A stretch of 64,000 nucleotides of DNA from Candidatus Acidiferrales bacterium (GTDB taxonomy: Bacteria; Chloroflexota; Limnocylindria; P2-11E). Within the stretch, counting starts at the first letter, position 1; each line of letters opens with the position of its first letter. The notes under the pieces are model-generated. The model had not been told where the DNA came from. It did not search any database and saw only the letters and a list, made by a program, of their open reading frames with translations. This document shows positions 18,472 to 23,558 of the stretch, piece by piece. The translations under genes and the position numbers were made by a program. The stretch lies in NCBI GenBank assembly GCA_035631715.1, contig DASQIF010000042.1, positions 1,582 to 65,581 on the forward strand. Direction: 5' to 3'.

Positions 18472-18618
18472 ATGGACTGGATCGAGCAGCTCTTCGGCAT
18501 CGACCCCGACATGGGCTCCGGATCACTCGAGCTCCTCATCGCCGGCGCTGTCGCGATCGTCGTCGTCGGCCTTGTCGCGATGCGTATGCGCAAGACGCGC
18601 GATGAGAAGGTGAGCTGA
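18472..18618 (+). CDS. Small (48-aa) predicted membrane protein
   Basis: A GGGAGG SD lies 7 nt upstream of the ATG. It has one TM helix (LLIAGAVAIVVVGLVAM) followed by a basic tail, and its codon bias matches the genome. Confidence 0.4.
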   Translation: MDWIEQLFGIDPDMGSGSLELLIAGAVAIVVVGLVAMRMRKTRDEKVS

Positions 18619-19868: not shown

Positions 19869-20871
19869 ACACCGGCTCGCTTCCTCGGCCGCTTATCGTT
19901 CCGCCGTGCGCTTATCGCAACAGGCTGCGCGCGCCGCAGTTAGGCGAGACGTGACCCGCATCGCGTCAGCGCTCCTTGTCGTGCTTCTCGCGACCGCATG
20001 CACGACGTCGCAAGCGATCGCCGAGACCACCGCGAAGCCGACGGCGACGATCCACTACACGCCCGAGCCGACCGCCAGCCCGACGCCGGCGCCGTCGATC
20101 ACGCCCGCGCCGGCTCCGACGGCGAGCCCCGCGCCGGACTGGAATGCGCTCCCCGTCGCCGCGAACGACCCGGGCGCCCTCGCCGCGCAGATCAAGGTGG
20201 TCGAGGACGCGCTTCGCGACCCGAAGGTCCAGGGCGCGCAGCTCGCGTACATGGGCCACCTGCAACAACTGACGTACAGCCGCCTCGCCGACTACCCCGA
20301 GTGGCAACCGGCCGTGCTCGCGGCGCTGCCGCAGTACAGCAAGGCGCTCTCGGACGCGCTCGACGCCGGCAAGAACCTCCGCTCGATGTCGAGCGTCGTC
20401 CCGACCCGTCTGCCCGACTGGAAGATCGTCGCGCCGCGTCAGATCGACGACCTCCTCGCCTTCTACAAGGAGGCCGAGGCCACGTACGGCATCGAGTGGC
20501 AGTACCTCGCGGCCATCCACCTCGTCGAGACGCGCATGGGTCGCATCCGCGGGCTCTCGAGCGCCGGCGCGCAGGGCCCCATGCAGTTCATGCCCGCGAC
20601 CTGGTCGCAGTACGGCCGCGGCGACGTCAACGACGATCACGACGCGATCCTCGCCGCGGCGCGCTACCTCAAGGCGGCCGGCGCGCCGGCGAACATGGCC
20701 AAGGCCCTGTTCGCGTACAACCACGCGCAGGCGTACGTGAACGCGCTCCTCGACTACGCCGACGCGATGAAGGCCGACCCGAGCGAGTACCGCGGGTACT
20801 GGGGCTGGCAGGTCTACTACCCGACGAAAGACGGACCGATCCTGCTCCCCACCGGCTGGACGAACGAATAG
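19855..20871 (+). CDS. Lytic transglycosylase-domain lipoprotein (SLT/MltB-like)
   Basis: It carries the catalytic-region motif IHLVETRMGR...GAQGPMQFMPATW. It has a signal peptide and lipobox (LLATAC) and a Pro/Thr/Ala-rich linker. An alternative GTG start lies at 19951. Confidence 0.75.
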   Translation: MRSVRHRLASSAAYRSAVRLSQQAARAAVRRDVTRIASALLVVLLATACTTSQAIAETTAKPTATIHYTPEPTASPTPAPSITPAPAPTASPAPDWNALPVAANDPGALAAQIKVVEDALRDPKVQGAQLAYMGHLQQLTYSRLADYPEWQPAVLAALPQYSKALSDALDAGKNLRSMSSVVPTRLPDWKIVAPRQIDDLLAFYKEAEATYGIEWQYLAAIHLVETRMGRIRGLSSAGAQGPMQFMPATWSQYGRGDVNDDHDAILAAARYLKAAGAPANMAKALFAYNHAQAYVNALLDYADAMKADPSEYRGYWGWQVYYPTKDGPILLPTGWTNE

Positions 20872-20877
20872 CGCGCG

Positions 20878-21108
20878 CTAACCGCGCGGCAACGGGTTCA
20901 GCACGAAGTGCGCGAGCAGCACGAACAGGAACAGCACCAGCGCACGCGCGAGCCAGGGGTTCCGCTGGGTCCAGGCGTCGATGTTCTCCGTGACGTTCGG
21001 CCAGCCACGAAAGTCCGCGACCGTGTCGAGCAGCGCGATGAGCGTGACGATGACGCAGAGCGCCTCGATCACGATGGCCATGCCGACGCGATACGTGTCG
21101 GCGGTCAC
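20878..21108 (-). CDS. Small (76-aa) 2-TM membrane protein, fourth gene of the CpaF-like operon
   Basis: A GTG start overlaps the upstream stop as GTGA. It has two hydrophobic helices. Confidence 0.5.
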   Translation of the reverse strand: MTADTYRVGMAIVIEALCVIVTLIALLDTVADFRGWPNVTENIDAWTQRNPWLARALVLFLFVLLAHFVLNPLPRG

Positions 21109-21626
21109 CGCTTCACCGCCGGACGCGTGAGCGCGTCGCTCCAGAACCAGTGGCCGGCGATGAGGAAGATCCCGAAGATCGCGATGCGCGTGAACCAGCC
21201 GCCGGTGAAGTCGGCGTCGAAGTAGATCGCGCAGCGCGTGTAATAGGTGATCGGCTCGAGCTTCGCGCCCGAGGCGAGCGCGATCTGCGCGGTGCCGATC
21301 GCCTCAAAGATCCATACGAGCGTCGCGCCGAAGAAGACGAGGACCATCGCCGCGCGCCCGGCCTTCACCGAGGCGTCCGTGCTCTTCGGCGGCCGGTCGG
21401 GTAGGACGACGCCGACGTAGTGACCGATGACGAACGCGACGACACCGATGACGAAGAGCCACGGGTCGGGAAGCCGATCGATCGTGTACACGCACGACGG
21501 CGGCGTGGGCGCGCGCCAGACCAGGAACGCGATCGTCGAACCCGAGGCGAAGATGCCGACGGTGATGGCGATGTGGAAGATGTGCGAGCCGATCGCCTGC
21601 GCGCGATGCCGCCCGACGATGTTCAT
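21105..21626 (-). CDS. 4-TM membrane protein (173 aa), third gene of the CpaF-like operon
   Basis: An ATGA overlap joins it to the upstream gene. It has four predicted TM helices and no recognisable family motif. Confidence 0.55.
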   Translation of the reverse strand: MNIVGRHRAQAIGSHIFHIAITVGIFASGSTIAFLVWRAPTPPSCVYTIDRLPDPWLFVIGVVAFVIGHYVGVVLPDRPPKSTDASVKAGRAAMVLVFFGATLVWIFEAIGTAQIALASGAKLEPITYYTRCAIYFDADFTGGWFTRIAIFGIFLIAGHWFWSDALTRPAVKR

Positions 21627-21919
21627 CGGAACACCGTGGTCGCGATGAGCACAGCCGCCGCGATCGTGACCACCAGAGCGGCGAGCGGACTGAGAGCGCT
21701 CGGCATCGCGAGATCGATCGGCGGGAGACCGCGCAGCAAACGGACGAGCGTCGCGAGAAAGCCGAGGAAACAGCAGGCGGCGATACCGAGCGACAGGCGG
21801 ACGAACAGCGACGCGACGACATGCGTGAGCGTCTCGAAGACCGCGCCGCCCGCGACCGCGCCGATGACGAACGCGATCGCAAGCGCGATGACGAGCTGCA
21901 CCAACGGACTCCGGAGCAT
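21623..21919 (-). CDS. Small (98-aa) 3-TM membrane protein, second gene of the CpaF-like operon
   Basis: A TGATG overlap joins it to the upstream ATPase-like gene. It is hydrophobic, with a G-G-AVFET segment faintly reminiscent of a Flp-type pilin processing site. Confidence 0.5.
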   Translation of the reverse strand: MLRSPLVQLVIALAIAFVIGAVAGGAVFETLTHVVASLFVRLSLGIAACCFLGFLATLVRLLRGLPPIDLAMPSALSPLAALVVTIAAAVLIATTVFR

Positions 21920-22518
21920 CAGAACCGCGTCGGCTCCGCCACGTTCTCGAAGCGATCGCGTCGCTCGTCCCAGCGATGGAGCAGCCGCAGCTCGCCGCCG
22001 TACTCGTTCACGTCCGCGATCACGCGGCGCGTCGGATGCTGCCAGTCGTCGCCGAGCGAGCGGATGTGCACAATGAGGTCGAGGCGTGAGAGATCATCGG
22101 GCGCGACGCGATTGCGCCGCAGGATCACGAGCGCGTCCTCCGCGGAGTCGGCGTGGAGCGCGGTCGAGAGCGACGTGCCGTTCGCGATCTCCGCGAACGC
22201 GGCCCGCACCGGCGGACCCCAGACGTAGCCCGCGGTCACCGGGAATCGGCTGACCTCAGGGACGTAGAGATAGCCGCCGCGAGCGGCGCGCGCGAGCGTC
22301 GCGACGTCGGTGCCGTCCTCGCCGAGCTCGCGAACGGGTGCGCCAGCGTCACGCGCGACCGCGAGCATGGCCTTGCCGACCGTGCTCTTTCCGGCCAGTC
22401 GCGGGAGCGCGATAACGAGGTAGGACGCTCGCTTGAGCGCAGCGCGGCGGAGGGTCGCCGCGATCTCAGGCGACATCGTGCCGCTCCCGACCAGGTCCGC
22501 CAACCTAAGGACCGCCAT
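21919..22518 (-). CDS. Truncated, degenerate CpaF/TadA/VirB11-family secretion-ATPase-like protein (199 aa)
   Basis: It aligns by eye to the T2SSE core of CpaF. LADLVGSGTMSPEIAATLRRAALKRASYLVIALPRLAGKST corresponds to the pre-Walker-A region, with the Walker A sequence altered to AGKST. The His-box-like sequence GTSLSTALHADSAEDALVIL matches TGHdGslsTiHAnsa.da. It lacks the whole N-terminal domain and a clear Walker B. Confidence 0.55.
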   Translation of the reverse strand: MAVLRLADLVGSGTMSPEIAATLRRAALKRASYLVIALPRLAGKSTVGKAMLAVARDAGAPVRELGEDGTDVATLARAARGGYLYVPEVSRFPVTAGYVWGPPVRAAFAEIANGTSLSTALHADSAEDALVILRRNRVAPDDLSRLDLIVHIRSLGDDWQHPTRRVIADVNEYGGELRLLHRWDERRDRFENVAEPTRF

Positions 22519-22663
22519 GTGGAAAGGGACACTAGACGGGAAGGCGCCACCTAACCCACACTTGGGTGGCCGGACGAACAGGCGACGAACAGGGCGTTGA
22601 GAGGCAACTCCTCCACGAGACTGACGGAACCATCGAGCGGCAGAAATTTCGGAGGAGACCTAA

Positions 22664-22984
22664 GTGTCATTCCAGGACAAGACCCTTACCTGTCGCGACT
22701 GCGGACAAGAATTCGTCTGGACCGCAGGCGAGCAGGAGTTCTTTCAGAGCCGTGGCCTCATGAACCCGCCGAGCCGTTGCCCGGCGGACCGTGCGGCACG
22801 TCGCGCCGGTGCCGGTGGCGGCGGTGGCGGCGGTGGCTACTCGAGCGGACCCCGCGAGATGTTCACGGCGACATGCAGCAACTGCGGTCGTGAGGCTCGC
22901 GTTCCGTTCCAGCCGCGTGGCGACAAGCCGGTGTACTGCTCGGATTGCTTCGAGAAGATGCGTGGGAGCAGGAACCGCTACTAG
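22664..22984 (+). CDS. zf-trcl-type zinc-ribbon protein (two CxxC...CxxC ribbons) with a poly-Gly spacer
   Basis: It starts with GTG, with a GGAGGAG SD 8 nt upstream. The first ribbon is CRDCGQEF...CPADR and the second is CSNCGREARVPFQPRGDKPVYCSDCF. These are separated by G8, encoded by a (GGY)n triplet repeat. Confidence 0.75.
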   Translation: MSFQDKTLTCRDCGQEFVWTAGEQEFFQSRGLMNPPSRCPADRAARRAGAGGGGGGGGYSSGPREMFTATCSNCGREARVPFQPRGDKPVYCSDCFEKMRGSRNRY

Positions 22985-23055
22985 TGGCACGCTCCGCCAC
23001 GAGCGTCACATTGAGGCTTCGTGGCGGTCCTTTTGATGGGCAGTCGGCGGTGGCC

Positions 23056-23193
23056 ATGGGTGCCACCGTCGGCTCGCTCATCACAGTCAACTCACGCAAT
23101 TACCGCGTGACGAAGATCGAGAACGTCCCCGGCCGCCGCGAGCAGGCCGGCGTCGCGAACTTCGAGCGCCCCGTGGAGAAGCCCAAGCCCTGA
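23056..23193 (+). CDS. Hypothetical small protein (45 aa)
   Basis: GC3-rich codons begin only at this ATG. A GGTGG sequence lies upstream, and the stop overlaps the next gene's ATG as TGATG. A longer GTG-initiated version at 22984 has atypical codons. Confidence 0.25.
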   Translation: MGATVGSLITVNSRNYRVTKIENVPGRREQAGVANFERPVEKPKP

Positions 23194-23558
23194 TGTCGGC
23201 GAAGCTCGCCCTGCAGATCGGCGCGGTCCTCGCGACGATCTTCGGCCTCGCGCTCGCGCTCGCTCCCGTTCAGATGCTCGGCGGCTTCGGCATGGCCACG
23301 CCGCCTGAAGCGCTCGTCGTGTCGCGCGACATCGGCGTCACGCTCCTCGGTGTCGCGGTCATCAACTGGCTTGCTCGCGATCAGACCGGTCCCGCGGTCC
23401 GCGCGATCCTCATCGGCAACGTTGTGATCCAGGTCCTCGAGGCGCTCGTGAATGGCTGGGAGGTCGCAGCCGCGATCATCCCCGTGCAGGCGCTCGGCGG
23501 CGTCGTCCTTCACGTGATCCTCGCGGTGATCTTCATCCTTCCGCTGCGCCGCGCGTAG
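23193..23558 (+). CDS. Small 4-TM membrane protein (121 aa)
   Basis: It has four hydrophobic helices and is translationally coupled (TGATG) to the preceding small ORF. Confidence 0.55.
   Translation: MSAKLALQIGAVLATIFGLALALAPVQMLGGFGMATPPEALVVSRDIGVTLLGVAVINWLARDQTGPAVRAILIGNVVIQVLEALVNGWEVAAAIIPVQALGGVVLHVILAVIFILPLRRA

Follow-up and report, generated by a model that had tools for sequence, protein, structure and literature searches.

Do four overlapping genes, the first for a shortened secretion-type ATPase and the other three for small membrane proteins, encode one miniature secretion or pilus machine, or do they bring together units that can also live apart? The question is raised by a locus on contig DASQIF010000042.1 (GenBank assembly GCA_035631715.1, Candidatus Acidiferrales bacterium, placed by GTDB in Chloroflexota; Limnocylindria), from which a stretch of 64,000 nucleotides, hereafter the window, was analysed. 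An initial annotation of this DNA, made from the sequence alone, had read the four genes, here called A199, B98, C173 and D76, as a miniaturised secretion, pilus or membrane-remodelling module headed by a truncated ATPase. Our comparisons with related loci make it fairly probable that two separable units share one promoter here, namely the ATPase A199 and a B98-C173-D76 membrane cassette. What is new is an ATPase family without N-domain and without annotation, found in metagenome-assembled genomes (MAGs) of Chloroflexota, together with a set of clade-specific orphan membrane genes.

The four open reading frames (ORFs) run head to tail on the minus strand and overlap at every junction: TGATG between A199 and B98, where the start codon of B98 overlaps the stop codon of A199, ATGA between B98 and C173, and GTGA between C173 and D76. 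This overlapping run, with its product lengths of 199, 98, 173 and 76 residues and its coordinates, was recovered exactly as first described, and so were the peptides quoted from it (LADLVGSGTMSPEIAATL, AGKST, GTSLSTALHADSAEDAL and GAVFET). The G+C content of the window is about 69%, and long spurious ORFs are therefore common in it. All four ORFs are genuine coding genes: their G+C content is 0.85-0.94 at third codon positions (GC3) versus 0.40-0.52 at second positions (GC2), all four have intact homologues, and the ratio of nonsynonymous to synonymous substitution rates (dN/dS), obtained against two relatives, is about 0.2 for A199 and 0.12-0.53 for the other three (0.16-0.53 for B98). For B98, C173 and D76 it is GC3, dN/dS below 1 and conserved motifs that mark them as genuine genes. 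Hydropathy gives these three about 3, 4 and 2 transmembrane (TM) helices, respectively, in agreement with their early description as small membrane proteins.

A stand-alone ATPase domain of archaeal-type lineage

Searched alone, A199 matches no Pfam family, T2SSE included, at E <= 1; its sole NCBIfam match is a weak one to TIGR03819, the TadA family (13.7 bits, E 0.026), and the narrow profile A1 retrieved nothing significant from the PDB sequences. None of the family members scanned reaches the cutoff of Pfam T2SSE. The homology of A199 was revealed only by structure and by a broader profile, A2, built on an alignment of 54 sequences that reaches down to 26% identity to A199. This profile matches afGspE (2oap) with E 6.8e-29, FlaI with E 7e-22 and CpaF with E 1.2e-9, and by the same measure A199 is nearer to archaeal GspE and FlaI than to CpaF. 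The kinship with type II/IV secretion (Tad) ATPases that had been proposed from the letters is thus borne out by a structure match and by a significant profile relationship to all three proteins, and it takes in the archaellum ATPases.

The match between A2 and afGspE falls into two stretches, the first over afGspE residues 233-299, with the pre-Walker-A helix, Walker A and the Asp box, and the second over residues 342-498, from the His box to the C-terminus. Because the match covers just these stretches, the A family is recognised as a C-terminal ATPase domain only. A199 itself starts 7 residues ahead of the position equivalent to afGspE residue 233, and the approximately 230 N-terminal residues of afGspE have no counterpart in the A family, which confirms the early remark that the whole N-terminal domain is missing. 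The family is uniformly short in all of its approximately 450 clusters, and the intergenic stretch upstream of A199 measures only 145 bp and abuts a divergent gene. As for a detached N-domain encoded nearby, two candidates were considered and rejected, both being devoid of a relevant Pfam or PDB match: the 82-residue ORF at 22945-23193, and an acidic protein of 125-135 residues at two of the related loci (L019 and L020; L-numbers denote related loci throughout). At the other end of the protein, longer family members (260-280 residues) keep a C-terminal helical tail matching Pfam PilB3_C (best E 1.2e-7), which is gone from the Limnocylindria subgroup, A199 included. The A family is therefore a stand-alone C-terminal RecA-like ATPase domain of the archaeal-type GspE/FlaI/CpaF lineage; A199 descends from the archaeal-type secretion and assembly ATPases, with which it shares the RecA-like fold, sequence similarity at the level of A2 and motifs, and it lacks the N-terminal (N2/PAS-like) domain of that superfamily.

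The protein had been called motif-degenerate, without a clear Walker B and probably non-catalytic or highly reduced, a description that the alignments contradict. G43, K44, E88, Y98 and H122 are invariant across A2, P39, A42, T46, W100, G101, A123 and R165 are nearly so, and R63, E64, L65, G66 and G69 do not vary in alignment A1. RELGEDG is aligned with ...IEDT.E in afGspE and FlaI and conserves the ED of the Asp box; a beta-strand is predicted for residues 83-89 (YLYVPEV) and places E88 at its end, i.e. at the Walker B position; and H122, which comes after a predicted strand at residues 116-121, is aligned with tlHA in afGspE, FlaI and CpaF. The sole real deviation concerns the P-loop, rightly noted as atypical, which reads LPRLAGKST in A199: the Limnocylindria subgroup has other residues in place of the glycines that precede GK, whereas distant members have a canonical GPNGAGKT. 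As judged from these alignments, the Walker A Lys, the Asp box, the Walker B Glu and the His box are shown to be under strong purifying selection, and the invariant motifs, together with a dN/dS of about 0.2, point to a working nucleotide site at which ATP would be hydrolysed.

The same data bear on the idea that A199 is a decaying remnant of a full-length secretion ATPase, or a non-catalytic nucleotide-binding regulator derived from one. The loss of the N-domain, the unusual P-loop and the missing Pfam T2SSE match would suit it, as would the finding, described below, that A is missing from the locus in L033/L034 and hence dispensable there. On the other hand, the family is large and uniformly short, K44, E88 and H122 never vary, and a pure binder would need neither the Walker B Glu nor the His box. 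We consider this explanation quite improbable, and its pseudogene form was rejected on a dN/dS well below 1 together with the absence of any frameshifted copy in at least 30 loci.

The A family gave 354 matches in a set of 5.8 billion proteins and 450 clusters at E <= 1e-3 in a representative set at 50% identity. Its members are 200-280 residues long, and those named derive from Candidatus Limnocylindria, Dehalococcoidia or 'Chloroflexota bacterium' MAGs. All are labelled 'hypothetical protein' at NCBI, some JGI entries bearing automatic VirB11 or CpaF names of the COG type; no curated family in Pfam or NCBIfam covers them, and no published description was found in the literature on Rv0959, on PilB3, on Limnocylindria and pili or on secretion ATPases lacking the N-domain, so that the unassigned status first claimed for the system holds for the family. 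An origin in a defence system or a phage was rejected, as none of the four proteins has a significant match in PADLOC or PHROGs. Two database proteins are apparent fusions: in P0146 (351 residues) a CoA-ligase domain is attached to the first two-thirds of the ATPase, and in P0171 (452 residues) the C-terminal half of the ATPase follows a GntR-aminotransferase. Both look like assembly or gene-calling chimeras and not like real domain architectures. The nearest database entry, P0001, is 99% identical to A199, is labelled Candidatus Acidoferrales, is encoded on a 73.9-kb contig and has 194 residues, its start codon being called 5 residues later than in homologues. All other relatives belong to Limnocylindria or Chloroflexota, and the taxonomic label of the MAG, or its binning, may be wrong.

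Gene order in relatives and the two proposed units

When the window genes were compared with 25 related loci by tblastn, the four-gene arrangement turned up in none but the closest relatives (L007, L008, L009 and L032), whose A proteins share 84-88% identity with A199. Most other Limnocylindria have A without the cassette in the same synteny (MFS_3, SLT, A, zf_Tbcl). In L001, L004-6 and L011 the A gene lies between zf_Tbcl and SLT and ends directly against the convergent SLT gene, in L010 the slot of the cassette holds an ABC transporter, and in L017 it holds a zinc-ribbon/TM ORF on the other strand. The reverse situation was found by scanning metagenome contigs with the C173 family. On two contigs of 3-4 kb, L033 and L034, the flanking proteins are almost those of the window (zf_Tbcl 100%, the 82-residue ORF 91% and SLT 92% identical), and a B'-C'-D' cassette (45%, 46% and 50% identity, respectively) sits directly between zf_Tbcl and SLT; no A gene was detected on these contigs (tblastn with A199, nothing at E < 4).

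On the zf_Tbcl side, the 85% nucleotide identity between the window and L033 extends up to window position 22520, two bases from the A start codon, and the B' ORF of L033 starts about 4 nt past the point equivalent to the ATG of A. Because the upstream identity runs to the A start, related populations would use one and the same promoter region for A alone, for A-B-C-D or for B'-C'-D'; a single sample series yielded both L032, with A-B-C-D, and L034, with B'-C'-D'. A can be separated from the membrane cassette, which diverges much more quickly than the genes on either side of it. Its divergence between near-identical flanks suggests allelic replacement, horizontal exchange or accelerated evolution. 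Nucleotide similarity to these contigs resumes within the 3' half of C (window 21310; L033:1082-2310, L034:2718-3731).

Other subgroups place A in different company. In a subgroup at about 55% identity (L026-31), it lies 4 nt downstream of the gene for a CvpA(Colicin_V)-CAP fusion membrane protein, an IscA/HesB-like Fe-S biogenesis gene being next; uvrB and uvrA are found upstream at these loci (L026:5013-6991, also L027-L031). In L019-23, A stands alone, near uvrA. Three distant members of 268-279 residues are encoded immediately downstream of a Mb0984_helical/Rv0959_3rd/VWA protein of 630-675 residues, with a 4-nt overlap of the two genes in L018. The VWA-linked loci (L018:5109-7822, L025:714-3605, L024:2691-6517) have the gene for ribosomal protein L25 on their upstream side, and a UPF0175/DUF3368 pair separates the VWA gene from the ATPase gene in L024. 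This pairing could be analogous to that of MoxR with VWA proteins, and one may even suppose that an Rv0959/Mb0984-type VWA protein was the ancestral partner, the Limnocylindria copy working with a VWA protein encoded elsewhere and B98, C173 and D76 being irrelevant to it. The direct linkage of these members of about 270 residues to the VWA gene and the overlap in L018 speak for such a partnership; against it, the three loci share their synteny and so stand for about one lineage, neither the 64-kb window nor any of the Limnocylindria loci fetched holds an Rv0959-like VWA gene, and the neighbours differ in the other subgroups. We hold it to be very improbable.

These neighbourhoods are the basis of the reading that we favour, that of two separable units behind one promoter. 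The first unit, A199, would bind and hydrolyse ATP, would probably form a ring oligomer through contacts between C-terminal domains, and would act on partners that differ by lineage and are often membrane-associated. The second, B98-C173-D76, is a clade-specific and faster-evolving cassette that in this clade is translationally coupled behind A, all four genes being presumably co-transcribed from the divergent intergenic region at 22519-22663. As the cassette can be missing where A is present, and present where A is missing, at the same locus, it may be seen as an accessory that serves the envelope or membrane and is expressed together with the ATPase, and not as a miniature pilus or secretion platform. 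A direct interaction of A199 with the cassette is possible, though the data do not require one. Several points weigh against the reading of two separable units: the overlapping codons of the four genes, and the occurrence of cassettes of this type only at this promoter, would fit a true partnership; A could be encoded elsewhere in the genome from which L033/L034 derive, the evidence coming from 3-4 kb contigs; the VWA-linked loci amount, as said, to about one lineage; the leading P-loop glycines are lost, and both ATP hydrolysis and oligomerisation are predictions. Furthermore, the N-domain of canonical members helps to form the nucleotide site and to pack the hexamer, so that ATPase activity without it is uncertain.

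Much of this evidence could instead be read as one membrane machine, in which the mini-ATPase docks on a complex of B98, C173 and D76 and powers export, insertion or remodelling there. The A/B, B/C and C/D junctions overlap, the arrangement is intact in four relatives, cassettes of this type occur only at this locus and behind the same promoter, and in the L026-31 subgroup A again follows a membrane-protein gene at a distance of 4 nt. Yet most of the family has A without the cassette, L033/L034 have B'-C'-D' without A, and C173 has only 7 homologues among the 5.8 billion proteins, against more than 350 for A199. Besides, the three membrane proteins, with about 9 TM helices in total, offer almost no cytoplasmic mass for the docking of an ATPase, and no similarity to any platform protein was found by Pfam or by a fold search with C173. 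The early proposal of a miniaturised secretion or pilus module is not supported by these comparisons, and we regard a single machine as rather unlikely. Also unlikely, in our judgement, is a free-standing minimal motor, i.e. a secretion-ATPase core that dispenses with the N-domain and takes interchangeable lineage-specific partners (candidates being the B/C/D cassette, the CvpA-CAP membrane proteins and the Rv0959-type VWA proteins), or that enters a ring of full-length PilB or CpaF as a hetero-subunit.

The membrane proteins and the flanking genes

B98, C173 and D76 have no significant match in Pfam, NCBIfam, PADLOC or PHROGs. Homologues of B98 occur only in L007-L009 and L032 (61-83% identity) and in L033/L034 (45%). 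For C173, alignment A3 reveals invariant cysteines (C45 and C132) in the two predicted outward-facing loops, invariant histidines (H18, H69 and H159) in or near TM helices, and the conserved motifs LEPITYYTRC and IAGHWFW; its AlphaFold2 (AF2) model has a pLDDT of 63.5. D76 has sub-threshold Pfam matches only (DUF7427, E 0.002, below the cutoff). C45 and C132 of C173 are a possible disulfide, D76 carries a His in its second TM helix, and weak sub-threshold Pfam matches to haem-b membrane subunits were obtained for C173 (Nitrate_red_gam) and D76 (Sdh_cyt). As a speculative lead, one may think of a membrane complex that binds a cofactor or a metal.

It is with these proteins that the possibility of a reduced Tad/Flp pilus, in which A199 would stand for CpaF/TadA, C173 for TadB/C and B98 for a Flp-like pilin, has to be weighed. 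The homology of A199 to CpaF, its weak match to the TadA family and the GAVFET segment of B98 could be taken in its favour. This segment (GG/AVFE, with Glu at +4), in which a faint Flp likeness had been seen, follows about 24 hydrophobic residues, and its supposed Flp Glu is Lys in L008. Because of this position and the unconserved Glu, GAVFET is not a class III signal peptide, and B98 was rejected as a Flp-like pilin, the motif lying inside the hydrophobic stretch without a short charged leader. Neither Pfam nor the fold search of C173, which returned generic TM helices only, gave the T2SSF match that TadB/C would call for, B98, C173, D76 and the neighbouring genes gave no T2SSF, Flp or prepilin-peptidase signal, and A199 is closer to archaeal GspE/FlaI than to CpaF. 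The Tad/Flp explanation is largely refuted, and we grant it hardly any probability.

In L007, the codon of the B gene (L007:2484-2780) that overlaps the A stop is CTG and not ATG, GTG or TTG, and the protein is called 15 codons later, with 83 residues. To judge from this frame, B is not strictly conserved in its N-terminus or in its coupling to A.

Table 1. Features of the four-gene locus (positions in the window; residues are those of A199)
Feature	Position	Strand	Description
A199 gene	21919-22518	minus	199 residues; C-terminal-domain-only ATPase of the archaeal-type GspE/FlaI/CpaF branch
B98 gene	21623-21919	minus	98 residues; about 3 TM helices; clade-specific membrane protein
C173 gene	21105-21626	minus	173 residues; 4-TM membrane protein
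D76 gene	20878-21108	minus	76 residues; 2-TM membrane protein; last gene in the unit
Walker A / P-loop	22381-22410	minus	residues 37-46, ALPRLAGKST; GK[ST] kept, upstream glycines replaced
Asp-box-like segment	22312-22332	minus	residues 63-69, RELGEDG
Walker B strand	22252-22272	minus	residues 83-89, YLYVPEV; catalytic-type Glu88
His box	22144-22170	minus	residues 117-125, LSTALHADS
Divergent intergenic region A199/zf_Tbcl	22519-22663		presumed shared promoter and 5' leader
GC-rich hairpin CGCGCGGTTAGCGCGCG	20871-20888		perfect palindrome over the D76 stop, between convergent D76 and SLT

Within the divergent intergenic region, no sigma-70-like consensus was found. At the other end of the unit, the palindrome CGCGCGGTTAGCGCGCG lies 0-6 nt from the stop of the convergent SLT gene and could act as a bidirectional terminator; terminator-like sites are no more numerous than expected from shuffling. 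In most Limnocylindria the ATPase gene is accompanied by the zf_Tbcl gene and the ORF of 70-82 residues that follows it (window 22664-23558). The orientation of this pair changes from lineage to lineage: it points away from A in the window, L001 and L007, and in L004, L005 and L011 it lies upstream of A and runs in the same direction. Its small ORF is duplicated in L001, L013 and L015. Upstream of MFS_3, the window holds a further ORF of 48 residues with one TM helix (18472-18618; MDWIEQLFGIDPDMGSG...), probably a real small membrane protein, since it is kept in L001, L007, L008, L015 and L017 at 62-96% identity.

Comparison with known systems and significance

Compared with the archaeal-type ATPases afGspE (2oap), FlaI/ArlI (4ihq, 4ii7) and PilB3-type PilB, A199 lacks both the N-terminal part (about 230 residues in afGspE) and the C-terminal helical tail, its P-loop reads LPRLAGKST where theirs follows G(x)TxSGKTT, and its Walker B ends in PE instead of GE; a GY[VIL]WG loop after Walker B is specific to the A family, and no FlaJ/PilC-type platform, pilin or archaellin genes are linked to the A199 locus. 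VirB11/HP0525, PilT, PilB and GspE (T2SSE, PF00437), whose N-domain is likewise missing from A199, are more distant from it than the archaeal-type branch. CpaF/TadA proteins (8rkd, 9e24) possess N-terminal domains and are encoded with TadB/TadC (T2SSF), Flp pilins and TadV, none of which was detected here by Pfam, NCBIfam or the fold search of C173. The features by which a Tad or type IV filament system is known are thus wanting at this locus: there is no T2SSF platform gene beside the ATPase and no pilin with a class III signal peptide, and the ATPase does not co-occur with constant partners, A being found without B/C/D, B/C/D without A, and A in unrelated neighbourhoods. An architectural analogy is provided by SpoIIIAA with SpoIIIAB-AH, where several genes for small membrane proteins come after that of a secretion-type ATPase within one operon, as in A-B-C-D. 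Unlike that system, none of the four proteins has a SpoIIIA Pfam match at E <= 1 and the association of A with the cassette is not conserved; moreover, the host lineage is not known to sporulate. Our findings are not evidence for a new secretion system.

The ATPases of secretion systems, pili and archaella are thought to need their N-domain in order to pack into hexamers and to couple to the membrane platform. A large and conserved family which retains only the C-terminal domain, and which looks catalytically intact, could show what the bare ATPase core does or, alternatively, reveal a function unrelated to pili, in a group, the abundant soil and freshwater Chloroflexota, where this family is common. 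The presence of A, A-B-C-D and B'-C'-D' behind one promoter in close populations constitutes a natural experiment that can be used to test the interaction of the ATPase with the cassette. If the two do not interact, the finding is that of an unannotated protein family and of clade-specific orphan membrane genes; if A199 proved to be a minimal motor or a hetero-subunit, it would represent a previously undescribed use of the ATPase fold in monoderm Chloroflexota.

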